DNA of 64,000 nt from Trueperaceae bacterium (GTDB lineage Bacteria > Deinococcota > Deinococci > Deinococcales > Trueperaceae), in the NCBI GenBank assembly GCA_965215565.1, contig CBDCDZ010000004.1, positions 1,536,001-1,600,000 on the forward strand. The letters are read 5' to 3'. The notes under the pieces were generated by a model. The model was not told the DNA's origin, searched no databases, and saw nothing but the letters and a program-made list of their open reading frames with translations. This document shows, in pieces, positions 4,535 to 22,530 of the stretch. Made by a program: the position numbers and the translations under genes. Positions within the stretch are counted from its first letter, which is position 1, and each line of letters opens with the position of its first letter.

Positions 4535-7215
4535 ATGACGACCCAACGCGATAAACTCACGCTCGCCCAACTCGAGACCTTCCTCCTCCAAGCCGCCGAC
4601 ATCCTGCGCGGCAAGATGGACGCCAACGACTTCAAAGAGTACATCTTCGGGATGCTCTTCTTGAAGCGCATCCCGACCAGTTCGCTGCCAAGCAGGAAGA
4701 GATGAGGCAAGTTTACAGCCATCTTTCCGAAGAGCTAGTGGACGAACTGCTGACGGAGAAGACAACCTACGGCGAGGCGTTCTTTGTTCCAGAAGAGGCT
4801 CGCTGGAATAGGATCAGAGATTTTCAGCACAATATCGGTGAGCAGTTGAACGTCGCCGTTTCTGCCCTTGAAGAGGCTAACGACACGTTTGAGGGTGTTC
4901 TCAAAGACAAGATCAACTTCAACGCGGCGAGTGGCGGCAAGCGTCTCGTGTCAGACGGACGGCTCAAAGACCTCATCAACCACTTCAATACCATCGTTCT
5001 CACTAACGGCAACTTCGAGTTCCCCGACCTCTTGGGCGCAGCCTACGAGTACCTCATCAAGTTCTTCGCTGACAGCGCTGGTAAAAAGGGCGGCGAGTTC
5101 TACACGCCTGCCGAAGTGGTTCGCCTTATGGTGCAACTCGTCAAGCCCAAACAAGATATGTCCGTGTACGATCCGACCATTGGCTCGGGAGGAATGCTCA
5201 TCCAGTCGGCGCAGTACGTCGAGGAGCAGGGGGAAGACCCTATCAAGCTGAACCTCTTCGGGCAAGAATCCAACCCGGCGACCTGGGCGATCAGCGTGAT
5301 GAACATGATTTTGCACAACCTCGCCTCCGCGAGCATCGAGTACGGCGACACGTTAGAGGAACCCCTACACGTTAGGGACGGGCGTCTGCGGCAGTTCGAC
5401 CGCGTTCTAGCCAACCCACCCTTCTCCCAAAACTACACCCGCGCCAACATGGACTTCACCAACTGCTTCCCCTACGGCTTCGCGCCGGAGACGGGCAAGA
5501 AAGCCGACCTCATGTTCGTCCAGCACATGATCGCCAGCCTCAAGGACACCGGCGTCATGGCGACGGTCATGCCGCACGGCGTGCTCTTTCGGGGCGGCAA
5601 AGAGAAGCAGATTCGCGAGGGGTTCGTCAAAGCGGGCATCGTCGAGGCGATTATCAGCCTACCCCCCTCGCTCTTCTACGGCACGGGCATCCCTGCCTGC
5701 ATTCTCGTCATCAACAAGAACAAGCCCGACGGCTTGCGCAACAAGGTGCTCTTCATCAACGCCGACGCAGAGTACGCCGAGGGCAAGAAGCAGAACAAGC
5801 TGCGCCCCGAGGACATCGAGAAGATCGACTGGGTCTACACCCACAAGCACGAAGCGCCCAAATACTCGCGCCTGGTAGACATAGAAGAGATCAGAGACAA
5901 CGACTACAACCTCAACATCTGCCGCTACGTGGACAACACCCCGCCCCCCGAACCCGAGGACGTGCGGGCGCACCTGGTCGGCGGCGTACCTAAACAAGAG
6001 GTGCAAGCGCAGCAGAAACAGCTCGACAAATTCGACATTATGCCCCTGCTCGTCTTCCAGGAGCGCGACGCCGAGTATTACGACTTTCGGGACGAGATCG
6101 GGAGCCGTGACGACCTCAAGCGCATCATCGAAGAGGACCAGAACGTCAGGGCGACCTACCGCCGCATGATCGAGCGGCTCGAAGGTTGGTGGGTAAAAGC
6201 CCGCGACACCTTCGCCCGCCTCGCCCCGCCGAACGGCGCGGACTACCCACAAGCTAAGCTCCCCGACGTTCGCGCCGACCTGCTCGCCTCACTCAAGGCG
6301 ACGCTACAAGAAGAGCGCGTGCTCGACGACTTCCAGGCGGGCGGCGTCTTCGCCAACTGGTGGGACGCCATCAAGTACGACCTCAAAACTATCGTAGCGA
6401 ACGGTTGGCACCATACCCTCATCCCGGACGAATACCTGATACGCGCCTTTTTTCAAGCCGACCAGGACGCGCTCGACATCCTCGCTAACACGCTCAGTGA
6501 CCAAGAGGCGCAGCTCGACGAGGCGGTGCAAGAGGTAGAATACGAGCCCGAGGAAGACGAGAAGGTCACACCCGCCGTGGTCAAGAACCACCTGACCAGC
6601 GAGATCAAGTCCCTCAAAGAGGACGGCGGTCCGCTGCTTTCCGGGGCGGAAGATGAGTTAGCAGGTTACGAGGCGCAGCTTGGGGCGATTAAGGATGCAG
6701 AAGGCGCGATCAAGAAGACCAAAGCCAAGATCAAAGAGCGTGAGGTGCAGCTCGCTGAGAAGCTGCTGCTGAAGCGCTACGGGGTAGAAGAGGTCACGGC
6801 GGACCTGAATGCTCGGCTCAGGCAGGTGCAAAAAGAGGTCGAGGCGTGGGAGGCGAAGCCGGGCGGTGATGCGAAAGAGGAGAAAGCGCGGAAGAGTGAG
6901 GTGAATAAGCTGGGTAAAGATGTGAAGGCGCTTGAGGGGCAGAGGGAGCGGGCGGAAGGGTTGTTTGGGCAGGTTGGGGGGGTGCTTACGGAGGAGGAAG
7001 CGAAGAATCTCATTCTGCAAAAACACCACGACCTTGTTAGAAGCACGCTTGAACGCTATATGGATCAAGAAAGGCGCATTCTACTCAGTAGTTTCAACAA
7101 CCTGAATGAGAAATACTCTACTTCAGCCTATGAATTAGAGGCTGATCGAGAGGACACAATGACTCAGCTTCAGGTAATCATGAAACAGCTAAATTATACC
7201 GAGGCGGTAGCGTGA
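4535..7215 (+). pseudogene. hsdM: Type I R-M methyltransferase subunit, 1-nt frameshift near 4673
   Basis: N-terminus [46 protein letters not shown] starts at 4535 in a different frame from the 4702 ORF, which carries GEFYTP, DPTIGSGG and NPPF motifs. Confidence 0.85.
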
Positions 7216-8549
7216 GAGGTTGGAAAAGGCAAAAGATAGGGCAGTTATTCGAGTACACAATTCCAGGAGATTGGGGCGGAACTCCTTCTACGAATAGCTC
7301 TGTGCCCGTAGTTCGTTCGACTAACTTTAGGAACGATGGCAGGCTAGATTTGAGCGACATCGTGTACAGAAGTGTTAGTCCCAAAAGCCTGAGTGTGCGT
7401 GAAGTAAATCAAGGAGACGTGCTCATTGAAAAATCAGGAGGTAGCCCAAACCAGCCCGCAGGTAGAGTTGTTTTCTGCGATCAAGAGTTTGGAGGCACGT
7501 GTTCCAACTTTATAGAAGTTGCCAAGATCAAACAAGGTTTCGACAACAGGTTTATTTTCTACCTCTTGTATTTCCTTTACCAGACAGGTCTCGTACTTAA
7601 ATACCAGCAGCAAACAACTGGGATAATTAACTTTAAGCTCAATCAGTACATGGATGAGTTTGTGGAAGTGCCTGGTTCAAAACAAGAGCAAAAAGAGATA
7701 GCTGATGTATTAACAAATATAGACACCGCCATCACTCAAACCGAGGCGCTTATCGCCAAGTACCAGCGTGTCCGCACCGGGCTCATGCAGGACTTGCTGA
7801 CGAAAGGCGTTGACAAAGAGGGGCGCATCCGCTCCGAGGAGACGCACGAGTTTAAGGACTCGCCGCTGGGGAGGATTCCGGTGGAGTGGGATATGGCATC
7901 TATAGCTGATACTGCTAGCAAAAGCCAGGGCTCAACTTCAATTGGACCATTCGGTAGCGATTTACTTGCTAGCGACTATAGGGACCAAGGAGTTCCGGTC
8001 GTTTTTGTTCGAGATATTAAAAGCGATGGTTTCATTTGGAAAAGCGAAGTATACCTGGATCAAGAAAAAGCGGAGAAGCTCGCTGCACACTCCGTACTTC
8101 CGGGTGATGTAATCGCCACAAAAATGGGATTACCGCCCTGTATCTCATGCGTTTACCCGTTAAATATGCCTCCCGGCATCATTACCGCTGATGTAATTCG
8201 ACTTCGTCCAAACTTGGAGATAGCCAATGCTGAATGGCTTGCTCAGTATCTAAATTTTACACCCGTGCGGAATCAGGTTAAAGCAATTACAGGAGGTGTG
8301 ACGCGACCAAAGGTTACGCTTAGAGACTTCAGAAATTTACTCATTGCTCTTCCTAGAATTAGCGAGCAATCTCAAATCCTAAGTATTTTGCGCAAAAATC
8401 AGCAACGAGTTGAGTGCGAAGAGGAGTACGTAAGTAAGCTTAATCATCTGAAAAGTGGTCTCATGCAAGACCTCTTAACAGGTAAAGTTTCCGTTGACGC
8501 GCTTCTTAACCAAACTGAGTCTCAAACACCGGAGGTTGTCGCCTCATGA
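7212..8549 (+). CDS. hsdS: Type I R-M specificity subunit
   Basis: Two AT-rich TRDs with conserved EQ..IA..L / GLMQDLLT repeats, between hsdM and hsdR. Confidence 0.92.
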   Translation: MRGWKRQKIGQLFEYTIPGDWGGTPSTNSSVPVVRSTNFRNDGRLDLSDIVYRSVSPKSLSVREVNQGDVLIEKSGGSPNQPAGRVVFCDQEFGGTCSNFIEVAKIKQGFDNRFIFYLLYFLYQTGLVLKYQQQTTGIINFKLNQYMDEFVEVPGSKQEQKEIADVLTNIDTAITQTEALIAKYQRVRTGLMQDLLTKGVDKEGRIRSEETHEFKDSPLGRIPVEWDMASIADTASKSQGSTSIGPFGSDLLASDYRDQGVPVVFVRDIKSDGFIWKSEVYLDQEKAEKLAAHSVLPGDVIATKMGLPPCISCVYPLNMPPGIITADVIRLRPNLEIANAEWLAQYLNFTPVRNQVKAITGGVTRPKVTLRDFRNLLIALPRISEQSQILSILRKNQQRVECEEEYVSKLNHLKSGLMQDLLTGKVSVDALLNQTESQTPEVVAS

Positions 8550-11500
8550 TCAAGCCGGATAAGAAGGTCACGCCTAAGCGTCAGAGTGAGCGGCGGAGCG
8601 TTGAGTTGCCGCTGCTAGAGCAGCTCAGGGGCTTGGGCTGGGAGGTGCTGGACCTGGAGATGAAGCAGGAGCCCGCCGACTCGTACCGGGAGAGCTTCAC
8701 GCAGGTCATCCTGGAGCCTCGGCTGCGCGAGGCGCTGCTGCGTATCAATCCTTGGTTGGAGAGCAGTCAGATTACGGAGTTGGTGCGGCGCATCACGCCC
8801 ACGACGGGGAGCCTCTTCGAGAACAACCAGCATATTTTAGACCTGCTCTTAGACGGCACGCCGCTGGACAAGAACCACCAGACGGGCGACCAGAGCCCGA
8901 CGGCTCGCTACGTGGACTTCGACCACATCGAGAACAACGACTTCTTAGCGGTCTGTCAGTTCAAGGTGCGTATCCTCGGCACGGAGAAGCACATCATCCC
9001 GGATGTGGTGTGCTTTTTGAACGGGTTGCCTATCGCCGTCATCGAGTGCAAGTCGCCCAAAGCGCAAGACCCGATTCCCGAAGCGATTGACCAGATGCTG
9101 CGCTACAGCGAACAGCGCGATGAGGGGAGCGAGGGCAACAAGACGCTCTTCTACTACAACCAGTTTTTAGTCGCCACTTGCCGTAACGAGGCGAAGTTTG
9201 GCACGATCAGCAGCCGCAGCGCCAAGCACTACTTCCGCTGGGCTGACCCCTACCCGCGCGAGCTTGACGACATCCGCGAGGGGCAGGCGAGCCCGAACGA
9301 CCAGTTGCGTCTCGTGGCGGGGATGTTTGACCGCCGTAACCTCTTGGACCTCATCCGCGTCTTCACCCTCTTCGTGGAGGATGATAAGGGTAAGCGCATC
9401 AAGGTCGTGGGGCGTTACCAGCAGTTTAGAGCGGTCAAGAAGGCGGCGCGGCGGCTTTTAGATGGCAATAACAAACTACAGCGCGGCGGCATCATCTGGC
9501 ATACGCAGGGCTCCGGCAAGTCGCTCACGATGGTCTTTTTGGTGCGGGAGATGTACCTGCAAGACACGCTCAAGAGTTGGAAGGTCGTCTTCGTCACGGA
9601 CCGGACGCAGCTTCAGGACCAGCTCACGAGTACGACCAAAGCCATCGGCAAGACGGTGCAGGTGGCGGACAGCATCAACAAGCTCAAGGCGCTGTTGCCC
9701 ACCGACTCCTCGGACCTCGTGATGGCGATGATCCATAAGTTTCAGGAGCGGGAGTTGAAGACGAGCGTCTTTGAAGAGATGAACCCAAGTACGAACATCC
9801 TCGTGCTGACGGACGAGGCGCACCGCTCGCAGTACAGCTTGCTGGCGGGGAATCTGAACCGAGCACTGCCCAACGCCACGGAGATCGGCTTTACGGGCAC
9901 GCCCATCGACAAAACCGAGCAGAAGTACGGCGACTACATCGATAAGTACACCATGCGGCAGTCTATCGAGGACGGGGTGACGCTCGAGATCGTCTACGAA
10001 GGACGCACCAACAACGCCGAAGTGGACGATCAAGGCAAAGCGAACGAGTTGTTTGAGGATGTGTTCAGCGAGTACGACTTGGGCGAGCGGCTGCAAGTGT
10101 TGGGCTACGGTGGCAAAGACGCTTTCTTGGAGGCGCAAGAGGTCATCAACGCGAAAGCGCTCGACATGGTCAGGCACTACGCCGAGCATGTGTTTCCCAA
10201 CGGCTTTAAGGCGCAGGTGGTGGCGACCTCTCGCGAAGCCGCGCACCGCTACGGGCTAGCGCTCAAAGACGCCCTCTCAAGAGTCCACGCCGAACTGGAG
10301 CAGAATAACCCGCTCAACGTCGATCTGAAGAGGTTACAGCAACTTGAGGTCGCGGTGGTCATTTCTGGCGGCAGTCATAACGACAAGCCTTATCTCAAGA
10401 AGCACGCCGACGCTACGAGCACAGGAAGGACATCGCCGGCTTCAAGCTCGCCTTCGGCAGCGAAAACGAGGACGGTGTAGAGGGTAACGTCGGTTTTCTC
10501 GTCGTGAACAACATGCTACTAACTGGGTTCGACGCGCCCATCGAGCAGGTCATGTATCTGGACAAGGTCAGCGTGGCGCACAACTTGCTACAAGCTATCG
10601 CCCGCGTGAACCGCGTCGGACCGGATGGGAAGGACAAGGGCTTTGTGGTGGATTATGTGGGCGTCGGTCATCACCTGAAACGAGCCCTAGATGACTATCA
10701 TGAGCGCGAGCAGAAGGAGATTCTCGAGTCGCTGAGCGACCCAGCGCAGGAGTTAGAAGACCTCAGACAGGCGCGTGATGCGGTCTGGGCACTCCTGGAG
10801 CGGTCGGGCGTCCACGACCTGCACGACTACGACGCCTTCTATGACCTCTTCTACGACGAGGAGACGCGCTTCGAGTACATCTTGGCGTTCCGTAAGTTCA
10901 CTAAGGCGTTCAACCTCGTGCTCCCCCGCAAGGAGGCGCTCGACTACCTGGAGGAGTATCTGCAATTCGCCGAGATCAACGTCAAGGCGATGCAGCACCT
11001 GCGCGACAGCCGCCTCAGCATGAAAGGTATCCCCGAGAAGCTGCGCAAGATTACTGACGCCCACCTCAAATCTCAGGACATCGAGCAGAAGGTCGCGCCC
11101 ATTTCAATTATGGATGACGATTTCTTACAGCATGTCGGTAAGAAAAAGCGCACCAAAACCAAAGCCGCCGAGATCGAGCACGGCATCCGGCACCATATCG
11201 ACACGCACCTTGACGAGGACCCTGAACTCTACGCCTCGTTTGCCGAAGCGCTCCAGGAGATCATCAAGACTTTTAAGGACAACTGGCAGAAGATTTACGA
11301 GGAATTGGAAAAGCTCCGGCAACGCATGAAGAACGCGGCGAAAGAGCCAACCTATGGTCTGCACCGCAAGAAGCAGATGCCCCTCTTTCGCATTTTGCAT
11401 AAGGAGATTTACGATGACCAGCCACTAGACAGCGACAACATCTCGTCGCTCGTACCCCTCACGCAGGAGATCACACTCATCTTGGAACGTGAATTGCAGC

Positions 11501-11679
11501 TCTCAGGCTTCTGGGACAACGTGATCGCCCGCAACAGGCTTAAGGGCGAACTTCAGAAAACCCTTCTCTCACCTGAAAACGCTAAACTACCTAATGTGGT
11601 CAAGAAGCGTAACGAGGTCATCACGCGGGTCATGGAGGTGGCGGAGCGCAACCACGACGCCATCCTCTACGCGGCGTAG
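8546..11679 (+). pseudogene. hsdR: Type I R-M restriction subunit, frameshift near 10412
   Basis: IECK nuclease motif, HTQGSGKS, DEAH, GFTGTP. The second frame continues EHRKDIAGFK...VVNNMLLTGFDAP...QAIARVNR. Confidence 0.88.
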
Positions 11680-11685
11680 GTCGCT

Positions 11686-12366
11686 ATGAAACTTAACTAC
11701 AGCGTCGTCTACTCTGACCGCCGGAAGACGGTGGGCATCACCGTCGAGCGTGACCGTTCAGTCGTGGTGCGAGCCCCCCGCCGCGCCACGGCGGACCAGA
11801 TCGAGCGCGTGGTGCAGCAGAAGAAGCTGTGGATTTATGAAAAGCTACGCCATCCGCAGAAGTATAACCTCGCCGAAGCGAAGCCTAAAGAGTTCGTTTC
11901 TGGCGAGTCTATCCTCTACTTGGGGCGCAACTACCGCCTGGAGATCGTCGATGACGACTTTGCAGGCGTGCGCTTCGAGAACGGCTTTTGCCTATCGCGA
12001 CAGTCTCAGCCGGACGCGCAAGTGTTCTTGGAGGCGTGGTTCAAGGAGCGGGCGGCGGAGAAGATCACGCCTCTAGTGCGAGAGGTCGCAGAGAATTTAG
12101 GGGTAGCCTATAACCGCATCATGATCTCTGACTTGCAGTACCGCTGGGGCTCGTGTACGCCTAATGACAACCTCAACTTCAACTGGCGGCTGATCCGAGC
12201 CCCGATGTTTGTTATTAGGTACGTCGTCGCGCACGAGCTGACGCATCTTTTAGAGCCAAACCACACACCTCGGTTCTGGAACATCGTTCATGTACAGGTG
12301 CCGCGCTACGCTAGGGCTAAAGCGTGGCTGAAAGCGCATGGACTGACATTATACAAAGGGGTCTAG
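11686..12366 (+). CDS. YgjP/M48-like metallopeptidase (DUF45), typical hsdR neighbour
   Basis: RWGSC...LNFNW...YVVAHELTHL..NH motif. Confidence 0.88.
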   Translation: MKLNYSVVYSDRRKTVGITVERDRSVVVRAPRRATADQIERVVQQKKLWIYEKLRHPQKYNLAEAKPKEFVSGESILYLGRNYRLEIVDDDFAGVRFENGFCLSRQSQPDAQVFLEAWFKERAAEKITPLVREVAENLGVAYNRIMISDLQYRWGSCTPNDNLNFNWRLIRAPMFVIRYVVAHELTHLLEPNHTPRFWNIVHVQVPRYARAKAWLKAHGLTLYKGV

Positions 12367-12420: not shown

Positions 12421-12762
12421 TCATAGCGGTCTAACAACATCATTCTCTTTCATTGTGACTATATGGTCGATGTTTTTGAAGTTTTGGGCGTTCGAAAAAT
12501 CTGCTGTGGGGTCTCGTTTTGCGAGCCGATATAGCATCAGTCTGAGAAAAAGAGCTCGCCAGTCTTTATTCTGCTGCTTGCCTATTTTCTTAGTCTTGGC
12601 AACCGATTGAGGAAACGCTCGCCAGAGTACGCCCCAGGTAAATTCGCAATCAAAGTAGGCTTTTCTGTAACGATAGTGAGTTGTTCGGCTAACTTTCCAA
12701 CGGCTACACACCCTGTCAATAGAGCGAGAATTGTAGTGCTGATCAAACAGAATCAAGGCCAT
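12421..12762 (-). CDS. Putative HTH DNA-binding protein divergent from tnsA (start uncertain)
   Basis: SIDRVCSRWKVSRTTHYRYRK HTH-like segment. Confidence 0.5.
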   Translation of the reverse strand: MALILFDQHYNSRSIDRVCSRWKVSRTTHYRYRKAYFDCEFTWGVLWRAFPQSVAKTKKIGKQQNKDWRALFLRLMLYRLAKRDPTADFSNAQNFKNIDHIVTMKENDVVRPL

Positions 12763-12885
12763 AAGCGGCTTATTGAGCTTGAGAGGACGACCTCGCCCGT
12801 CGAGTTCAAAGATTTTAGATATAGTGCTTGGATTCCCTCGTTTGTAGTTAGTTGACTGATTTTTTGACGCAAGGCTGCCACAGGG

Positions 12886-13575
12886 GTGATGGCATTGGCG
12901 GAGCCAGTTCGGAAAATTGATTCTAGTTGGGTGACGACCACCGCGCTGATACGCTGTTGCGGCAGATCGGTGTGGACGGAAGGTCCTACAGCCATGAGGT
13001 TTGTGGAAACTCTCCGTATGCACTCTTATGTTCGGAATGTTGTTGAGGAACCTTGTCAGATAACGTACAAAGATGGCGCTGGAAAGACTCGCCGTTACAC
13101 TCCCGATTTCCTCGTCGTATACGAATTGCCGGAGGAATATAGCTACTCCTCCACTGTCCTCTATGAGATTAAGTGGTCTGGCGACTTACGTGAGAACTAC
13201 GAAAAATACGAGGAACGCTTTGCGGCGGCATATAAGTATGCCGCTGAGCGTGGCTGGCGCTTTCGTGTAATTACCGAGAAGCGCATAGACCGTTATCATC
13301 GCTCCGCCACGCTTTTACATCGCTTCCTGCGCCGCAAACTCGAATACGAACACGTGAGATACGTTCTCGATACTGTCACGTTAGAGCCGGGCATCACAGC
13401 TCACGATTTTCTAGATGCGGAGTTGAGCCCCGTCGATCCCTTTAACTTGCTTACGACTATCTGGACGTTACTCGCGCGTGAGCAGATCAGCGCGGAGTTA
13501 GAGGGCGGCATAACAAATCGGACACCCTTATTCCCGGCTCGCGCCGGAAATCCTTGGGCTAGACCTGTCCTATGA
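12886..13575 (+). CDS. tnsA: TnsA endonuclease
   Basis: PVRKI N-terminus, EEP..I.Y...RRYTPDFLV, YEIK, A...GWRFRVITE. Confidence 0.9.
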   Translation: MMALAEPVRKIDSSWVTTTALIRCCGRSVWTEGPTAMRFVETLRMHSYVRNVVEEPCQITYKDGAGKTRRYTPDFLVVYELPEEYSYSSTVLYEIKWSGDLRENYEKYEERFAAAYKYAAERGWRFRVITEKRIDRYHRSATLLHRFLRRKLEYEHVRYVLDTVTLEPGITAHDFLDAELSPVDPFNLLTTIWTLLAREQISAELEGGITNRTPLFPARAGNPWARPVL

Positions 13576-14437
13576 GCCGTTTAAGACTGTTGGCGCGCAC
13601 CAAAGTGTCTTACGCAGGCTATGACTGGGAGATCGTAACAGTAGATAACAGACAGAAGCTTACATCTCTAAAGCGCGAAAATGGAATCACTTGCCTCGCG
13701 CCGACTTCGGAACTCGGTTCACCTGGTCGACATAAAATACCTGTTCCAAGCGAATACGAAGCGCTGCCTGAAAACATAAAGAATCTTTACGGTGATCTAG
13801 TAGCCTTAGACCGAACCGCAAAGGACAAGGAGCGCTTAGCCAAAAAAAACAGCTGTAGTAGGTCCACCGTCTACCGCCAACTCGAGAAGGCAAGAAGAGG
13901 TCCTGAAGAACTCAAGCGGAAACGGCGTGCGGACTTCGGAAACTCCAGCTTCGAGACGAGAGTCAAAGATATTATTGAGGCCGAAGTCAAAAGGGCACCT
14001 GCGTTTAGGAGCAACAGGGAAATCGCCAAACGTGCATTGAACGAGATGCACAAGCCGGACAAGGACGACAAGTACATAGAGAAAATTCCGAGCAAGTCGA
14101 CAGTACTTCGGTATGTGAGTCGGGAGCGCGGCAAGGTGCCTTACGATCCTTCCAAAGACGCACCCCATGTCAAACCGATACACCCCTTTGATGAACTCGA
14201 GATGGATTCGACTCAGGCAGATACCTATGTCGTATATGACGACTATAAGGAGGGTCGCCCCTGGCTTACATCAGTCGTTGAGGTTCTAACCGGTCTGCGG
14301 TGGATACTTGTCACGCGCGAAGAACCTAGCTCGCGTATAACAGGGTTGCTTATCATCATGGTCGTATTCGGTTTGGACCTCCCGCACGTTAAAAACAAAC
14401 CTCCGAACGGTTTATTTGAAAAGCTGTTGGTAGTGGC

Positions 14438-14933
14438 TCACCTCAGACTGCCAACCTTAACCTCCAGGTTGTAGCTAACGAGGAACATATGCAGGCAGAT
14501 CAGGCAGATAAGGTGCATGTGCTGGGCTTTAGAGAAGGACAAGGTCTTTCTGACAAAGCGGGCGAGGCGCTGACGAATTGTGTTGTTGAAACGTTCAACG
14601 TGAGCCGTAAGTCCAGTTTCTTTGCCGACAGCCTGATGTTGCTCGTCGGGGATAACAGCTTGATAAGCTTCCCAAAAGTCACTGAAGACGAGACCTTTTT
14701 TGTAGGCGTTAGGTACGTTGCCCCAAAGCTTCTTGCACGTAGCGCTACCGCGTCCTCCTATGACGCAAGCAACGACTTGCCTGGTCTGTTTGCAAAGAGC
14801 CAGCCATATCCAGAGCTTTTTAGCTTTGCAGCTTACAAACGACCACATTTCGTCGAGTTCAAGCTCTACAGCTCCAGGTACTTTAGGAGCTATGAGTGTA
14901 TCGCTAAGGGGAGGCGTTATCTTGGCTTTTTTT
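14438..14933 (-). CDS. insB: IS1 InsB catalytic part, expressed via -1 frameshift
   Basis: ELDEMWSFV, SDFWEAY, HVERFNNTIRQRL..F.RKTLSFSK. Confidence 0.88.
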
Positions 14934-15179
14934 GAGCCAGGCGTCCAGTGTGTTACGTGATATCCCAAACGTTCTAGCGACACCGCGCATACTAGAGCGC
15001 TCTTGATAAGCTTTAAGAATCTCTTCCTTTCTCTCTTTACTGTAGCCGTAATTTGGGTTCTCTAAACTCGCTCGGTTGCATTCCTTACAGTGGTAGCGCT
15101 GTTTGCCATTAGGGGCTTTGCCGTTCTTCTTTACGTTCTCGCTGCCGCAGTGATAACACTGTACTGTCTGAGTAACCAT
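14904..15179 (-). CDS. insA: IS1 InsA (zinc ribbon plus HTH)
   Basis: CYHCGS...KNGK...GKQRYHCKEC; ends at an A7 slippery run (14927-14933). Confidence 0.9.
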   Translation of the reverse strand: MVTQTVQCYHCGSENVKKNGKAPNGKQRYHCKECNRASLENPNYGYSKERKEEILKAYQERSSMRGVARTFGISRNTLDAWLKKSQDNASP

Positions 15180-16084
15180 CCCTTAGCTTAGCAGTTCGTG
15201 TTGAGCCACTACCAAGCTGTTCACAGATAGCGGCAAAGCGCTGAAAAACCTGAGTACAGAATCGCTGAATGAGAAGCATGATCTAACACTAAAATACCGT
15301 CCAAAGGGAAAATCCTGGTATGGCGGCACGGTAGAGACACTGTTCAATAACGACAGCGAATTCGTGAAAGAGTTTATGGGAGCTGTGGTCGATAGCGACG
15401 GCAGCGGTCGCAAGCGGAAATCAGGCAAAGCTGAGTACACCTTTGAGGAGTATAAGCGCTTGGTAGAGGGATACACTTACGATCATCTCAATATGACTCC
15501 TCGGACCGGCGAGGAGTTGTCTCCACTCGACAAGTTTTATGTGCTCCTTGTAGACCCTCCCGGCGGGGCAGGCTTAGGTAGCCTCGACCAGGTTCCGAAA
15601 GAGGAACACCAGCAGTTCAAACTCGACTGTATGCCGTTCATCACGAGAACAGTATCAAAGGATGGCGTTCGAGATGATTACACTATCTATAAGAGCGGTG
15701 CGCAAAGACGACTTATCGGCAAAAAGGTGGTTGCACGCTATGACCCGTCGGGCTATACCGATGTTATGCATGTCTGGGACGAGGAGAGCGCAGCCTATAT
15801 CGAATTTAGACCGAACTACGAAAGTCTTCCCAAGATGACACGGAAGGATCGCAAACGGGTTGTCAAAACTTTGAATAAGCTAGGTGTTGAACCTAGCATG
15901 GAAAGCATTGCTGAGAAGTATCGTGAGCTTGTAGAACAGGAGGCAGTCGAAGCCACGCAGCGAGCACCCGCCGAACTCACTTCTACTGAGGACGACACTC
16001 CCCACCCCCGCCATATTCGGGCATACGAGCTAGAAGACGACCTCGGCGACGAGATGCCCTACATTAGCCACAGGGACGGCTGAG

Positions 16085-17053
16085 ATGCGTAGGTCTGCTC
16101 TCGCAACTCACTACCTGGATGCACCTCTCGAGAAACGTATCGAACTTGTGGAGAACCATCCCTTCGTCGGCTGGCCTGCTGCTCACGACTTCTTTAAGCG
16201 AATAGATAGGATGCTTCTTGCTCGCCGGAAACGGTACCAAAAGCACCCAAATATGCACCTATACGGAAGAGCACACCACGGTAAAACAGAATGCTTGCGT
16301 GAGCTCCAGAAGCGTTATCCAAGAGGCGAGTTTAAGGGCGGATACGAACAGAGACCCGTCGTGTACCTACAGGCGGAGAGTGGAGACCGACCCGAAGACC
16401 TGTACAAGCGTTTGCTGGAGGAACTGAACCTGATGCTAGCCGCAACGACCAAAGATGAGGTTAGGAAACAGCTTATGGTACTCGTTCCCGCAATGGGCGT
16501 GAGGGTGCTGGCGGTCGATGAAATGCAAGATTTGGATGCAGGCGAAGGAAGCCGGTTCAAGCCAGTGATCAATCACCTCAAGGCGAGGAGCAACGACCTC
16601 GGGTTAGTTGTTGTTACAGCAGGGGTCGAGGGCTCGAGCGACGTCGTGCGGAATTCGGATCAACTGAAGAGTAGGTTCAAAGAGTTTAAACTACCTACCT
16701 GGCAGGTAAGAAAATTGTCGGACGAGACCAAGAAAAAGATGCCCGAAAAAGAGCTAGAGGAGATCAAAGGAGAGATTAGGGGGTATAGGCTATGGCTTAG
16801 AGGTATGGAATCGCATATGCCCTTGCCAGAGGCATCGAAGCTCGAAGATTTGTGGGAAAGCATTATCTTCCTAGCCGAATTCATGAGTCAGAACAGTAGT
16901 AAGACCCCTAAAGAATTTAAAGAGAAGCCGAAGCGCGGAGCACCGATAGGCTACGTCCGCGACCTCATTGTGGGTGCGTGTGTTCTGGCAATGGAGCAGG
17001 ACTGCTCAAAAATCATTCCAGATCACCTAGAAACCGTGGCGAGCAAATGGTAA
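16085..17053 (+). CDS. tnsC: TnsC/TniB AAA+ ATPase
   Basis: Walker A GRAHHGKT, Walker B LAVDEMQ, QLKSRF arginine finger; directly follows tnsB. Confidence 0.92.
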   Translation: MRRSALATHYLDAPLEKRIELVENHPFVGWPAAHDFFKRIDRMLLARRKRYQKHPNMHLYGRAHHGKTECLRELQKRYPRGEFKGGYEQRPVVYLQAESGDRPEDLYKRLLEELNLMLAATTKDEVRKQLMVLVPAMGVRVLAVDEMQDLDAGEGSRFKPVINHLKARSNDLGLVVVTAGVEGSSDVVRNSDQLKSRFKEFKLPTWQVRKLSDETKKKMPEKELEEIKGEIRGYRLWLRGMESHMPLPEASKLEDLWESIIFLAEFMSQNSSKTPKEFKEKPKRGAPIGYVRDLIVGACVLAMEQDCSKIIPDHLETVASKW

Positions 17054-18744
17054 CTTTCGATCTCCGTAAGGATGGCTGGATACCTGTGCTAGACGGCGAC
17101 ACTTGGCGGCTCGTCGGTATACGCGAAGCTTTCGCAAAAGGCGACGAACTACAGCTTGCCTGTGCAGACCCATTGGAAGAGGTCGTTATCGTCAGGCTGC
17201 TCGGGGAAGTCGTGAGAGGAGCCGCTGGGGGATGCGTAACCGAAGCCTCGCCCAGCTACGAAAGGATAAGCCGCTACCTCACACGCTATCCGCTCTACTT
17301 CATTCACCCTACGCATCCCTTCTACCAGATATGGGACCTTACGTGCAATACAAGCTGGATAACGCTCCATCCTTCCAAGAACAGTATGGACACGCGGGTC
17401 GTCCACGACCATAGTCGCGTCGACAGGCCCCCTCCCCTCACGGAAGACGAGGCGGTGAGACTCCACCTGCAGGCTCAATCGTTCGCGCCGACCGCCTTAC
17501 GCAGGGGAGGCTATGGCTACACAGTCAATGGGCCGCTCCTTAATCTCGTTGTGACACACGTTCTAGGTCCTAACCTTACAAGCACGATATTTGCAAATTC
17601 ACCGCGGTGAGAACGCGAGGTTAAACCCATATGGCGAACGAAGATAAACACGATTGCGTCTGTTCTCGCCGCCCGCGACAACAAAGTTGTGTTGAGCCCA
17701 TACACGCCTCTCACACGGATGCTTCGTTTCGAGCAAGATGGCTACACGTTCAAAATCGGGCACGCGCACGGGCTTCGCCCTAACCGCTTAAATGACCCGA
17801 TGCTCTCATTCACTGAGCGGGGCAAACCTCTACCTTGGAAGGCGTGCCACGATAGCCTCGCTTACCTGCAAAGAGTCCACCGCATTGGTGGCGTAACTCC
17901 ACTCGTAACATCGCGGGCGAGGCAAGCCGTTGAGAACCCCAACGACTATCGTGTTGCCGTCACCTACATGGTCGCCGATAAAGCTAAGCCTGTGACAGTG
18001 AAGAGGTTTACCCTTCCTCTGGTAGTCCCAACAGGCGAGTTCGCGAACAGAGTTTGTGATTCTTTAGAGGTAGCGCTCAAGGATTTGAAGAGGCGTTTGC
18101 GGTACTTAGGTATACGTGAAGAACAAATCGAAGACGCAAGCCGGACTCTAAGGACGCGCCTAGCCGACACATTACCCCAGCATTTAAGATCAGGAAGCGA
18201 GGCGTTGTGGAAGGAGGAAGTGAGGACAACTATGACCGAGGTTGAGCAGCATATCAATGTTCTAGCATGGCCCAAACCTCAACCAGCAAAGCGACGAGAG
18301 CCAAGTTCACGCGATGAAAGCTTCATTCGATGGTTGACTGTATTGTCCCAACCCGAACGCAGGGCGTTTAAGACTTTACCCGAGTCGCCGCGCTACCCGA
18401 CTTACCGATTTAGGCGTTTTCTGTACGAGAGAGATGGCCCTGAAGTCTTGCGCGCCTTTTCACTCGTCGCGCACTTGTACGCGAACAATGGCGGCTCCGG
18501 CGACATGCCACTCGCCGAGCGACTCGCGACGGACGCCTTAGATATTCCGCTCGCGCATCTCTCAGCAGCCGACACCTGGGAGGTTCTCTCCAGCATCTTA
18601 CGTAGCACTATAGGCGACCTCAAAGAACCGCCCGACTGGGTATATCTCCTCTACGACCTGAGGCGCTGGAATGGCCCAACAGGTCAAGTCGTAAAAGCAT
18701 GGAAATCAGATTATAAGCGTACGTTTCAGAGGAGGCACGCATGA
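17047..18744 (+). pseudogene. cas8e: Cas8e (Cse1/CasA) fused to Cas11 (Cse2/CasB), with in-frame TGA at 17608-17610
   Basis: MVTFDLRKDGWIPV start, HPFYQ, GPNL..TI.AN. The two track ORFs share one frame. The C-terminus has a Cse2-like PDW..LLYDLRRW...VVKAWKSDY. Confidence 0.82.
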
Positions 18745-19850
18745 GAGTCGAGATTCATACTCTGAGGATGTTGGGGCCAAGCTCTGTCAATAATGGGAAA
18801 GACAGACTGCCCAAACACTGCACCTACGGTGGGGTTCGGCGCACTCGCGTAAGTGCGGAGGCGCAGAGGCACGTGATCAGACAAGCGTTCAGAAAGTCGC
18901 TGGAGAGTTCCGCACCGTCCACGCGGATGCTTCTCGGCGAGCTTAGAGGCGCGCTTAAAGCTCGCAAGGAGTTACAACCGCCTAACGGGGTGCGGATCGA
19001 CCTTCTGGCCAGGAAGACGCTCGCGTTTCTCAAGCTAGAGGCCGACGAACACGGAGTGAGCAGGGTCCAGGTGAGATATGCTGAGGGAGCGTTCGCCCGG
19101 CTCGCCGAGGTCGTAGCGACCCACCGAGAGACCATCTTAACCAAGGAGAAAGTCACAAAGAGGCTGGAATGGGAGCTAGCAAACGCCCTTTTCGGTCCGA
19201 CGAATACCGAACTTCACGTGTTTGGCCGTTACCTCGCCGCCTTCCCGGATGTCGAAATCTTCTTATGTCTCGATGTCGCTAGCGCAGTATGCGTCAGCGC
19301 TTCGCCTCTGGAGGAAAACTTCTTCTCCTCAATCGATGACATTGCGAGTAAAGACCCTAACTCGCCCTACGGCATTGCTCACACCAACACCAACTACTTC
19401 AGCTCGCCAAATTTCTACGGATTCACTTCTATCGACTTGGCGCAACTCTGCGCGAACCACGGCAAGGAGGGTGTCGAACAGATCGTTAAGACACTCATCG
19501 ACCTTGTCGTCTATCAGTTTCCCAAAGCTAAGCATACGTCGTCAGCACCGTACGCGGTTCCTTACCTCGTGACGCTTGCAGCGGGTGAGGGGGCATGTTC
19601 GCATTCGGCATTGCAGGCGTTCGACGAGCCAGTAAGGTCCAGTGGGGGTATTAGAAAGCGGGCAGTGAAACGCTTCCATGAGCACTGGGAACGAAGCCAC
19701 AGCACATTCGCGCCCGCTCGCTATGCGACGCTCGCCACTGCGAGCTTAATCGACATACCCGAAAACAGTGTTCTTAACCCAATGTCTTATAACAACGCGA
19801 AAGAGGAGGTGATGGCGTGGACAACCCAATCGCTTACACGCTGCTCCTAG
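18741..19850 (+). CDS. cas7e: Type I-E Cas7 (Cse4/CasC), divergent
   Basis: VEIH.L...PSSVN...PK...YGGVRRTRVS, FGR.LA, FFSSIDD, F.S..FY.F..IDL.QL. Confidence 0.9.
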   Translation: MRVEIHTLRMLGPSSVNNGKDRLPKHCTYGGVRRTRVSAEAQRHVIRQAFRKSLESSAPSTRMLLGELRGALKARKELQPPNGVRIDLLARKTLAFLKLEADEHGVSRVQVRYAEGAFARLAEVVATHRETILTKEKVTKRLEWELANALFGPTNTELHVFGRYLAAFPDVEIFLCLDVASAVCVSASPLEENFFSSIDDIASKDPNSPYGIAHTNTNYFSSPNFYGFTSIDLAQLCANHGKEGVEQIVKTLIDLVVYQFPKAKHTSSAPYAVPYLVTLAAGEGACSHSALQAFDEPVRSSGGIRKRAVKRFHEHWERSHSTFAPARYATLATASLIDIPENSVLNPMSYNNAKEEVMAWTTQSLTRCS

Positions 19851-20449
19851 TCCTATCTGGCCCAATGCAGTCGTGGGGCGGGCGCACCTACACCGAGCGG
19901 ACAACCAACCTCACTCCAACTAAAAGCGGTGTCGTCGGGCTCATAGCCGCAGTACTAGGACGACGTCGAGATGAGGATATAAGTGACCTCGCCACTTTAA
20001 GAATGGGCGTACGCGTGGACCGGGCAGGGCTCCTCGAGACGGAATTCATCACCGGCCAAAATATCATCTCGGCGGACGGCACGAAGGTCCATGCCAGCTC
20101 GTCAACCGTAAAGCACTACCTAGCGGATGCTGTTTTTCTGGTCGGACTTGAGGGTGCACGGTGGACGCTCGAGTCTATTCGCGAGACGGTTGAGATGCCA
20201 CGCTTCCCTCTTTACCTCGGGCGACGTGGGTACGTTGCAGACAGACCTATTTATCTCAGCGACGGATTTCAACAAACGAACCTCGAGAGTTCGCTTAGAG
20301 AGTACGAACTCGTTGGACCTCGACGAACGGACGCATTTGAGGTCGAAGTTGAGGTAACTTCGGGCGGTGATTTGGTCTTCGACCAACCTATAGGACCTCG
20401 GCGCTTCGGTCCGCGGCGCGTAAAACGGTACAGGCTATGGCGGTTGTGA
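19817..20449 (+). CDS. cas5e: Type I-E Cas5 (CasD)
   Basis: LSGPMQSWG...PTKSGVVGLIAAVLGRRR...HYLADAVF...PLYLGRR. Confidence 0.95.
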   Translation: MDNPIAYTLLLVLSGPMQSWGGRTYTERTTNLTPTKSGVVGLIAAVLGRRRDEDISDLATLRMGVRVDRAGLLETEFITGQNIISADGTKVHASSSTVKHYLADAVFLVGLEGARWTLESIRETVEMPRFPLYLGRRGYVADRPIYLSDGFQQTNLESSLREYELVGPRRTDAFEVEVEVTSGGDLVFDQPIGPRRFGPRRVKRYRLWRL

Positions 20450-21039
20450 TACTGACAGAATTCGATCTCAATCTATCCAATCCCAACGTGAGCCGTGACG
20501 TTTTCGACAGATACAGTGCACATCAAACGATGAAGCGGCTGACGGAAAGTTCTATTGGACGTGCGCTCTGGCTCCTGCGCGCGAGAGAGAGTTCGGCGCG
20601 GCTCGTGGTACAGACCGAAACGCCCATCTCTGAGGAAACTGTCAACGCTCTTATCAAGTCAGGTTACGCTTTGCGGGTACGTCAGCAGGCGCTGATTCTT
20701 GAGTACCCGCGCGATGCTGTGCTTTACTTCTATCTCGAGGCGAACGCGGTGCGCCGTGGAAAGATCGTCCGGCCTGCTATTGAGCGAGAAGAGAGGTTGA
20801 GTTGGCTAGAAGAGAGGCTAAAAGGCGCCGGAACCAAACTCATCGATGTTGAGGTGTTAAGAAGTCACACATGTGACGTTGTTCCAAAGGACTACAAGCT
20901 CTATACGGTAACCTATCACGGTTTGATATGCGTCAAGAACCCAAAGGAGGCTTCAAGGTCGTTGCGCAAAGGCATAGGACGCTCTAAGCACCTCGGATGC
21001 GGTCTGCTTCTTACGAAGGCAGTAGACTTAGGGGTATAA
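20437..21039 (+). CDS. cas6e: Type I-E Cas6 (Cse3/CasE)
   Basis: D.Y..HQ histidine motif and C-terminal GIGRSKHLGCGLL glycine loop. Confidence 0.92.
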   Translation: MAVVILTEFDLNLSNPNVSRDVFDRYSAHQTMKRLTESSIGRALWLLRARESSARLVVQTETPISEETVNALIKSGYALRVRQQALILEYPRDAVLYFYLEANAVRRGKIVRPAIEREERLSWLEERLKGAGTKLIDVEVLRSHTCDVVPKDYKLYTVTYHGLICVKNPKEASRSLRKGIGRSKHLGCGLLLTKAVDLGV

Positions 21040-21066
21040 AATTTTCGCGAATTCCATCATAATAGA

Positions 21067-21157
21067 GTTGTTTCCGCACGCGCGGGGGTGAACGGCCCAG
21101 GTTGGCCAGACCGGGATCCAGTCCCAATATATTCCCCGTGCGAGTGGAGACGGAACA
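21067..21157 (+). CRISPR. Type I-E mini-array: repeat 21067-21095, 33-nt spacer 21096-21128, degenerate repeat 21129-21157
   Basis: GTTGTTTCCGCACGCGCGGGGGTGAACGG has the 29-nt I-E layout (5 nt, 6-bp stem, 4-nt loop, 8-nt handle). Second copy is ATATTCCCCGTGCGAGTGGAGACGGAACA. Starts 27 nt after the cas6 stop. Confidence 0.88.
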
Positions 21158-21163
21158 AAAATA

Positions 21164-21922
21164 TCAGCGAGATAAATAATACAACCACTCAAACGCTGTC
21201 AAGCGCCAGTACCGATCTTTTAGATTAAAGCCAAAGCTGTGACCCGCGCTCTGGGATTCGATCATCTTCTGAAGCCTCTTATTATAACGCAAGTTGTCCA
21301 GCAACTGCCTAGACTTAAAATGAATCGTATTGCGAGGCGAAGAGATAACTGCTTCAATAAGAGCGTCGTGAAAGTGGTAAAGGTCATCATCAATCCATCC
21401 GACGGGTTCGGTAGGCGCGTCTGCTAAATCATCACCACAGCAGTAACAGTAGCATTCAGAGTTCCACCGTTGCTCGTGACGGGCGTAGATATCAACTTGA
21501 GCACCACACTCCGCACAATCATCTCGAAGAAGACAGCGATGAATGCTGCACACTTCAACGACATCAACGTACCAAACTTTTCGAAACCACCTGAACTCGA
21601 AACAGCAGAGCGGGCAGAAGCGCGGCGTTTTCCGAATCACTCGCGACGCCGAACCAGAACAACCCAGTTCTCCTACTCGCCTCGGAATCAGGGCGTCCAA
21701 GATGATTGACTCATCGGCCTGAACTCCATCGGCTAGGACGGAATAAAGATTCGACCGCTTTGCTTTGATGATGTCAGGTGCGTTAGAAATACCATAAACC
21801 CTATGAGATTTCTTCAACCGAGCTATGAATCGTTCGACTGAAAGACCGTTGCCGTAACTCAGTCTGGCAAGGTAGGAAGTAAAGGCTTCGCCTTCATCGG
21901 GTTTGTCTCTAAACGCCCACAC
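21164..21922 (-). CDS. tniQ: TniQ target-selector
   Basis: P..GEAFTSYLARLS..NG, RFCPLC...W...C.IH...L.D.C..CG zinc motifs. Confidence 0.92.
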   Translation of the reverse strand: MWAFRDKPDEGEAFTSYLARLSYGNGLSVERFIARLKKSHRVYGISNAPDIIKAKRSNLYSVLADGVQADESIILDALIPRRVGELGCSGSASRVIRKTPRFCPLCCFEFRWFRKVWYVDVVEVCSIHRCLLRDDCAECGAQVDIYARHEQRWNSECYCYCCGDDLADAPTEPVGWIDDDLYHFHDALIEAVISSPRNTIHFKSRQLLDNLRYNKRLQKMIESQSAGHSFGFNLKDRYWRLTAFEWLYYLSR

Positions 21923-21971
21923 TACATATCATGTCATTAGTGTAGACTGCAAAGGTGAGTTTCAAGTACTG

Positions 21972-22017
21972 TTCGCAAATAACTCGATTCAATTCGCAAA
22001 TAGCGTGATTTTTGACA
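21972..22017. repeat. Transposon end with two putative TnsB-binding repeats and terminal TGT/ACA
   Basis: TTCGCAAATAACTCGATT (21972-21989) and TTCGCAAATAGCGTGATT (21993-22010), 15/18 identical, then TTTGACA. The minus strand reads TGTCAAAAATC... Confidence 0.78.
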
Positions 22018-22530
22018 AGAGCCAACCCCAAACGCCAAGAAACCCTCATCGTCGTCGGACTTGACCCCGGCTTAGCCAACTTGGGCCTGGGCGCGATTCG
22101 CGAAACGGGCAAAGAGGTCACGCATTTAGGCAGCACGCTGGTACGTACAAACAGCCGCACGGATCAAGCGGAGCGTTTGGCGGCGATTTACACCGAGATG
22201 ACCGACTTCTTGAAGGCGCATCGCCCCGACGTGCTCGCCATCGAAGGGCAGTATTTTCACCGCCAGCGCGACGTGGCGTTTAAGGTAGGGCAGGCTTTGG
22301 GCGTGTGCCTTTTAGCCGCGCAGCAACAGGGCGTCGAGACCGTTGAGTACGGACCGATGCAGGTCAAGCAGGCGCTCGTGGGCACGGGGCGCGCGAGCAA
22401 GGCCCAGGTGGGCTACATGGTTCGCGCCATGTTAGGTCTCACCCAGACCCCCGAGAGCCACCACGTCGCCGACGCGCTCGCGCTCGCGCTGACGCATCTG
22501 AGCGCGCGGCAACTGCAGTCGCTGGGTTAA
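22012..22530 (+). CDS. ruvC: Holliday junction resolvase RuvC
   Basis: VGLDPGLANLG, LAIEGQYF, EYGPMQVKQALVGTGRASKAQV, DALALALTH. Confidence 0.95.
   Translation: MTRANPKRQETLIVVGLDPGLANLGLGAIRETGKEVTHLGSTLVRTNSRTDQAERLAAIYTEMTDFLKAHRPDVLAIEGQYFHRQRDVAFKVGQALGVCLLAAQQQGVETVEYGPMQVKQALVGTGRASKAQVGYMVRAMLGLTQTPESHHVADALALALTHLSARQLQSLG

Follow-up and report, generated by a model that had tools for sequence, protein, structure and literature searches.

A stretch of 64,000 nucleotides (nt) from a Trueperaceae bacterium (GenBank assembly GCA_965215565.1, contig CBDCDZ010000004.1, positions 1,536,001 to 1,600,000; hereafter the window) carries, beside the host gene ruvC, the genes of a Tn7-like transposon together with those of a type I-E Cascade. 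The locus is considered here as a CRISPR (clusters of regularly interspaced short palindromic repeats)-associated transposon (CAST). In window coordinates, the element and its attachment site comprise the following features.

12886..13575, plus strand: tnsA (PF08722, E 8e-19)
13572..16083, plus strand: tnsB, DDE transposase, split by an IS1 insertion (Pfam Mu-transpos_C; TnsB C-terminus)
16085..17053, plus strand: tnsC, TniB-type AAA+ ATPase (PF05621, E 9e-34; Walker A and B motifs)
17047..18744, plus strand: cas8e-cas11 fusion, 565 codons (Cse1 and Cse2 domains by Pfam and PADLOC)
18741..19850, plus strand: cas7e, highly diverged (Pfam Cas7 CT1975; PADLOC Cas7e)
19817..20449, plus strand: cas5e (Pfam Cas5; PADLOC Cas5e)
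20437..21039, plus strand: cas6e (Pfam Cas6e; PADLOC Cas6e)
21067..21095, plus strand: repeat 1, I-E-type, hairpin plus 8-nt handle
21096..21127, plus strand: homing spacer, 32 nt, possibly 33 (to 21127/8)
21129..21157, plus strand: repeat 2, degenerate (atypical), weak hairpin
21164..21922, minus strand: short tniQ, 252 amino acids (aa), convergent to the operon (PF06527, E 3e-11)
21972..22017, minus strand: Tn7-like end, TG terminus at 22017, repeated putative TnsB sites
22054..22085, minus strand: protospacer within ruvC, 24/32 match
22086..22088, minus strand: 5' protospacer-adjacent motif (PAM), AGG
22012..22530, plus strand: host ruvC, the attachment gene (PF02075; host sequence starts at 22018)

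Gene content and probable homing site of the window element

All open reading frame (ORF) junctions given in a preliminary description of this DNA were reproduced, including the ATG of cas8e-cas11 at 17047, and the chain from tnsA to cas6e stands as drawn there, except that it is not intact, tnsB being interrupted by an IS1-family element and cas8e-cas11 by a TGA codon. The I-E mini-array (21067-21157), the tniQ gene (on the opposite strand) and the transposon end (at 22017) that were said to follow the chain are present, and the Pfam profiles proposed as a check, TnsA_N, Mu-transpos_C, TniB, TniQ, Cse1, Cse2, Cas7, Cas5 and Cas6e, were all found. The window thus holds the Tn7-like set of TnsA, TnsB and TnsC with TniQ, and the type I-E Cascade set of Cas8e, Cas11e, Cas7e, Cas5e and Cas6e with a 29-nt hairpin repeat; the best Pfam and PADLOC models for the effector genes are those of type I-E, not of Cas8/5f, Cas7f and Cas6f. 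The cas7e product is 27% identical to Cas7 of G282, a genome with an intact relative of the element, and 25% identical to the canonical Cas7 of the host, and no other protein under E 1e-30 was found for it among 1.84 billion representatives. Inspection of the fusion gene by eye showed no internal start from which a separate Cas11 could be made, a promoter scan gave a result at chance level, and the Cys pairs of TniQ are conserved across the alignment with the proteins of G282 and a further relative, G018. The reported lack of cas3, cas1 and cas2 holds for the first two, neither being found by tblastn with host Cas3 and Cas1 in 100 kb (the window and 36 kb upstream), a search in which both positive controls matched (2/2) and in which Cas2 was not sought separately. 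Folding prediction for 21060-21165 pairs one repeat with the other as one long hairpin enclosing the spacer (z -4.1), a structure that could affect processing of the CRISPR RNA (crRNA).

The key evidence, absent from the preliminary description, is a match of the spacer to ruvC beside the transposon end. The spacer matches the minus strand at 22085-22054 in 24/32 positions, behind AGG, and this is the only non-self site with 24 matches in the 4.49-Mb genome, the next best reaching 22. Cascade leaves every sixth base unpaired, and with every sixth base skipped the match to ruvC is 22/27 and that to the next site 19. The reverse complement of the spacer codes for LGLDPGLANL, the N-terminal motif of RuvC, which reads VGLDPGLANL in the protein encoded here, and 6/8 of the mismatches are synonymous (a reading in which all were synonymous was wrong), which argues that the spacer was derived from some ruvC.

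The end, with its TG at 22017 on the minus strand and two 10-nt repeated sites 21 nt apart, is in register with the ends of related elements in G282 and G001, and lies 36 bp from the protospacer on the PAM-distal side. In one contig of run X4 (depth about 5.6), 8 extra nt at the junction, including the ruvC ATG, place the end at 44 bp, and the 36-bp spacing of the window most likely reflects a later loss of 8 bp. The window genome has a single copy of ruvC, in which the native ATG is absent and no in-frame start remains except a TTG that lies in the element end; a general rule of insertion right after the ATG, with a new TTG start supplied, was dropped because the run X4 allele keeps the ATG.

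Relatives in the Deinococcota

A scan of 364 genomes of the phylum gave TniB in 59/364, Cas7e in 111/364 and TniQ alignment matches in 42/364, and selected co-located or diverged loci were read. Neither cas3 nor cas1 was present in any of 11 test regions (11/11 without), the window's own and ten others, with no separate search for cas2. Three loci share the layout of the window element, that of G282 being intact and those of G018 and G001 decayed, and in all four (4/4) the element's own last spacer matches the adjoining gene, a different target in each case, and is followed by the most diverged repeat of the array. The end lies 42 bp from the protospacer in G282, 42-44 bp in G018 and 43 bp in G001, beside the 36 bp of the window (44 in the other allele). 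The PAM, AGG in the window, is AAG at seven other loci and AAA at one.

Intact homologous loci, for which a search had been suggested, are represented by G282, with the same gene order and an intact, complete gene set. Its last spacer matches the 3' end of an arginase gene (29/31, AAG PAM, end at 42 bp), and both ends were located 49 kb apart (C2:2998118 and 3047102), together with a direct repeat, ACCT. Immediately next, after 4 bp, comes the end of another element in tandem at the arginase site (G282:C2:3047102-3047107), as repeated use of a single site would lead one to expect. A tyrosine-recombinase-like gene of 564 aa lies divergent from tnsA (G282:C2:3006962-3008656; L019 16963-18657) and may act as a resolvase or in a TnsF-like way. 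In G018, cas8e and cas11 are separate genes and cas7 is frameshifted; the last spacer matches the 3' end of pilT (26/32, AAG PAM, end at 42-44 bp), an end call at 23 bp having been rejected on comparison with empty pilT alleles. The first G018 spacer (L034 11209-11240) is similar to the TnsB-site motif found at Tn7-like ends, a hint that other transposons may be its targets, and no strong match to it was found. The earlier attribution of the system to the Deinococcota is supported at family level, as G018 belongs to the family of the window genome and its locus is also carried by L074, a Trueperaceae metagenome-assembled genome. G001, of the same genus as the window genome, has an empty ruvC and keeps cas6e, the array, a broken tniQ and the end, with a last spacer that matches the 3' end of a DNA methyltransferase gene (28/31, AAG PAM, end at 43 bp). 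In the TniQ tree G282 and G001 form a supported pair, yet their elements occupy two different genes, with a match in each case to the resident spacer at 42-43 bp; it is thus the spacer, and not the protein, that the insertion site follows.

Among the relatives' loci collected, no target turned up for the first spacer of G282, of G018 or of G001. In seven spacer-target pairs (including that of G119, which is without tns genes, and leaving out G056 and G001), 27/40 mismatches fall at multiples of three and 16/40 at multiples of six, as expected if the spacers are in frame and wobble positions lie at unpaired Cascade positions. A quick Cas7 tree groups the window with G282, and with P0003 and P0007, two unplaced proteins without genomic context, at support 95, G018 standing apart. 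The preliminary description would have yielded to homologous Cascade operons found with cas3 and unlinked to tns genes; instead, the Cas7 of the window groups with the tns-linked Cas7 of G282, its closest placeable relative. Homologue searches by word index, with Cas7 and TnsC as queries, gave back nothing but the window's own proteins, a related-locus search with Cas7 returned nothing, and a locus search with the TniQ alignment gave four metagenome loci, none with Cascade, and one genome locus duplicating G018. No members outside the Deinococcota were found in these searches, which are insensitive for such diverged proteins.

A second Tn7-like lineage with a I-E Cascade is seen in six genomes (G040, G048, G056, G180, G188 and G190), in the order tniQ-cas6-array-cas8-(cas11)-cas7-cas5, preceded by tnsABC in 5/6, the contig of G188 ending first. 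Arrays of 3-7 spacers lie between cas6 and cas8 (loci L022, L025, L026, L028, L029 and L035). In 4/6 arrays a match to the last spacer lies in the gene next to the tnsA end.

NFACT: 24/32, PAM AAG
comM: 20/27, PAM AAG (weak, shortened spacer)
SLBB/comEA-like gene: 26/32, PAM AAG
an ORF that we take to be RtcB-like: 29/32, PAM AAA

In G056 comM is split, and a search of 64 kb did not reveal its N-terminal part. The ends of this lineage are tentatively placed at about 50-53 bp from the protospacer, with the tnsA end first, whereas the window's lineage has a TniB-type TnsC, a Cas8e-Cas11 fusion, a spacing of about 42-44 bp and the tniQ end first. FastTree separates the TnsC proteins of the two lineages with support 100 and groups the second-lineage TniQ with Cascade-less TnsD-like elements, and the quick Cas7 tree gives the second lineage support 95 and joins it to the group of the window and G282 on long branches. 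On these three trees two captures are likely, though not proved, the alternative being one capture followed by module exchange. It is likely, with some reserve, that two separate Tn7-like lineages of Deinococcota have each domesticated a I-E Cascade for RNA-guided homing that depends on TniQ, both lineages being outside the current classification and both having intact-looking copies (G282 in one; G048, G056 and G190 in the other).

Several candidate loci were set aside. G140 has a canonical I-E system with cas3 and cas1; in G032, G026 and G109 no tns genes were seen; the contig of G177 is only 3.6 kb long; and G237 (L030 6500-11667, C8) combines a Cas3-less I-E operon and a long array, in a plasmid-like or integrative and conjugative element-like setting, with no tns genes in 20 kb. 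Six further Cas7 loci have cas1 and/or cas3, and 13 further Tn7-like loci and eight further TniQ loci have no Cascade. The G119 locus (G119:C21; L027 4100-9127), with a Cas3-less I-E operon, a one-spacer array, an AAG PAM and insertion sequence (IS) elements close by, is a possible relic.

Proposed homing mechanism and decay of the window copy

The window element very probably belongs, as a decayed copy, to a family of Tn7-like CASTs that home by means of a Cas3-less type I-E Cascade. The gene set, the absence of cas3 and cas1, the ends and the geometry of spacer, target, PAM and end can be read from the DNA, and the steps of the process are modelled on type I-F3 CASTs, transposition and the coupling of TniQ to Cascade being inferred. 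The mini-array would be cut by Cas6e to give crRNA, and Cascade carrying the last spacer, with the atypical repeat after it, would bind a conserved host gene behind an AAG or AGG PAM without cutting. The short TniQ would link the PAM-distal side of Cascade to TnsC, and TnsA and TnsB would then place the element, tniQ-side end leading, at about 42-44 bp past the protospacer. Insertion at or just past the gene boundary would keep the coding sequence; in the window the target would be the 5' end of ruvC. The earlier proposal of a TnsABC and TniQ element with a Cas3-less I-E Cascade is supported by the homing geometry seen here and in 3/3 same-layout relatives.

Homing might instead be guided by protein, with TniQ reading the site as TnsD does and Cascade being carried as cargo to silence or mark the gene alongside. 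Type I-B CASTs home via TnsD (PMC11656645), and TnsD-like proteins of about 600 aa occur without Cascade in many Tn7-like relatives in the Deinococcota (13/13 such loci read). However, TniQ here has just 252-297 aa, and the close TniQ relatives of G282 and G001 are found at different genes that each match the resident spacer at 42-43 bp, which makes protein guidance very improbable. No more can be said for a route in which the host Cas3, guided by Cascade, cuts the site and insertion takes place at the resulting break, as Hsieh et al. proposed for the telomeric I-E5 elements (10.1101/2024.11.13.623437). The host does carry a full and separate canonical I-E system with Cas3, but the window Cas7 is just 25% identical to that of the host, and the protospacers are intact with nearly fixed spacing, whereas I-E5 elements have lost protospacers and show variable distances; ruvC has also been reported as essential in D. 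radiodurans (PMC9601230), so that cutting would be costly, and this route too is judged very improbable. That a degraded Cascade and a transposon lie together by chance, or that the locus was misassembled, is suggested by a copy with breaks in several places and a single end. This reading is less probable still, as the same gene order is intact in G282, element parts are covered at high identity by contigs from runs of four studies (one contig spanning 15189-21355), and G282 and G001 would have to be misassembled in the same way.

Other observations weigh against RNA-guided homing by a I-E Cascade. The window genome is without a second end and a target duplication, which were likewise not found for G018 and G001, and the duplication of G282 reads 4 bp where 5 is usual. 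The first G282 spacer reaches 24/31 twice in the window genome, so that a match at the level of 24 can arise by chance, and the window match accordingly rests on position, PAM and codon pattern and not on score alone; its spacer also has a mismatch at position 5, near the PAM. G018 is without tnsABC on the 20 kb read, and the N-terminus of its Cas7 groups with canonical Cas7 on a long branch. No adjacent match is seen in 2/6 second-lineage arrays, the last spacer of G040 being truncated to 17 nt and the G188 contig lacking the flank, and the G119 mini-array has a 24/31 match in a host gene about 8 kb away with no tns genes found. Moreover, all of the genomes come from one phylum and are not independent.

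The window copy itself is, to judge from its sequence, inactive, because tnsB contains an IS1, cas8e contains a stop, TnsA has lost a Glu and the second end was not found. Three further features belong to this part of the account.

14429..15213, minus strand: IS1-family insertion, 785 bp, 8-bp target duplication (PF03400/PF03811, inverted ends)
12421..13023, minus strand: divergent ORF, weak helix-turn-helix (matches under cut-off)
4702..12366, plus strand: type I restriction-modification (R-M) operon and YgjP-like gene

With the IS1 removed, tnsB forms a single 573-aa frame with plausible DDE motifs (D212/D288/E324), 24% identical to the intact TnsB of G282 over 478 aa, and an IS-free allele is present in a contig of run X3. 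The cas8e-cas11 gene has a single premature in-frame TGA at codon 188 (17608-17610) and shares 26% identity with the intact fusion of G282 (590 aa) across 592 columns; run X1 has identical letters at the stop, although X1 may be the source sample, which leaves sequence error not independently excluded. TnsA has Ala where 7/7 other aligned TnsA proteins carry Glu, a residue that we take to be catalytic in TnsA of Tn7, and the window protein is probably impaired as a nuclease. In one low-depth contig of run X4, 1023 bp of cas8e are skipped (window 17262-18286), which represents decay of this element by a separate event. At window 12869, next to a motif resembling an end, contigs of run X4 and of run X6 stop, and a further insertion site may lie there, just upstream of tnsA.

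The interval between ileS and ruvC measures about 40 kb in the window genome and about 1-1.3 kb in G001 and G002, which have empty ruvC alleles, and the native sequence seen upstream of ruvC in these two is absent from the window genome. The type I R-M operon and the YgjP-like gene are probable cargo, inferred with no second end found; in the operon (4702-11679) hsdR is broken into two ORFs, 8546-10480 and 10504-11679, and the start of hsdM is apparently frameshifted. The second end was sought without success by alignment to the first end, from the empty-site flanks, by a scan for target-site duplications, with a position weight matrix and by a genome-wide pattern search. Right after ileS, at the expected position of the lost end, an IS5-like element splits a presumably RloB-like gene (G000:C4:1518200-1519700), and this element may have caused deletion of the second end. 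Elsewhere the host has three Tn7-like modules without Cascade (G000:C4:828900-835900, 3019000-3024500 and 3708900-3713300). Holding a homing spacer only, the window copy may have relied on crRNAs of the host I-E system for spread, as other CASTs are reported to borrow host crRNAs for that purpose (PMC11656645).

Comparison with known systems

If true, a TniQ-coupled I-E CAST would add one, probably two, independent captures to those known, and would show TniQ adapting to a new Cascade. Type I-E, the best-studied Cascade, uses an AAG-type PAM and would thus provide an orthogonal programmable integrase. For direct tests there is the intact element of G282, in which ends, PAM, spacer, site and spacing are all known. 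The family shows homing sites re-chosen through spacer change within one genus, and relatives, at least one of them intact-looking, that follow the same rule at other genes suggest a further kind of programmable DNA inserter.

The 2025 classification of CRISPR systems, in its available text, lists types I-F, I-B, I-D, I-C and IV-A among class 1 Tn7 CASTs, and gives I-E5, without TniQ and with Cas3, as the sole I-E form (PMC12669027). The term I-E does not occur in the main text of Faure 2023 (PMC10293859) or in the available text of Benler 2021 (10.1101/2021.08.23.457393). Against novelty, Koonin and Makarova 2024 list I-E among Tn7-like captures, citing Faure 2019, Rybarski 2021 and Faure 2023 (PMC11656645). 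Apart from that one sentence of a review, the suggestion that the system was possibly undescribed held up, in that no description of a TnsABC and TniQ I-E CAST was found in the literature searched, with figures, supplements, subscription papers and patents outside its scope. The I-E case of Faure 2019 reportedly concerns TnsBC elements.

Among described I-E systems, the I-E5 telomeric CASTs of Streptomyces share a I-E Cascade co-operonic with transposase genes and the lack of cas1-cas2. I-E5 elements have TnsBC, no TniQ, an active Cas3, one end plus the telomere and no adjacent protospacers (10.1101/2024.11.13.623437; PMC12669027), whereas the present family has TnsA and TniQ, no Cas3, two ends (in G282) and adjacent protospacers, and the window element occupies an internal chromosomal site. 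The Rpn-associated systems of Rybarski et al. (10.1101/2021.08.16.456562) share a Cas3-less I-E Cascade and self-targeting spacers, but are non-Tn7, with an Rpn PDDEXK protein and no TnsABC or TniQ in the text available. Type I-B and I-D CASTs are likewise Tn7-like with a Cas11-containing type I Cascade; they combine TniQ with TnsD and home by protein, in contrast to the one short TniQ and RNA homing spacer found here.

The closest likeness is to the type I-F3 CASTs (Tn6677-like), with which the family shares TnsA, TnsB, TnsC, a single short TniQ, a Cas3-less Cascade and a mini-array with an atypical repeat after the homing spacer. In both, insertion is PAM-distal, at about 42-44 bp here and 43-45 bp in I-F3 (PMC11300857); for known CASTs in general, distances of 30-50 bp (PMC11656645) and 50-60 bp (10.1101/2021.08.23.457393) from the protospacer have been given. 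The differences from I-F3 lie in the I-E effector, the AAG-type PAM, the cas operon behind tnsC, the convergent tniQ, the Deinococcota hosts and the targets (ruvC, arginase, pilT and methyltransferase genes). The elements are therefore best described as a small Deinococcota family of RNA-homing Tn7-like CASTs with a I-E effector, which would work like the I-F3 type and are distinct from I-E5.

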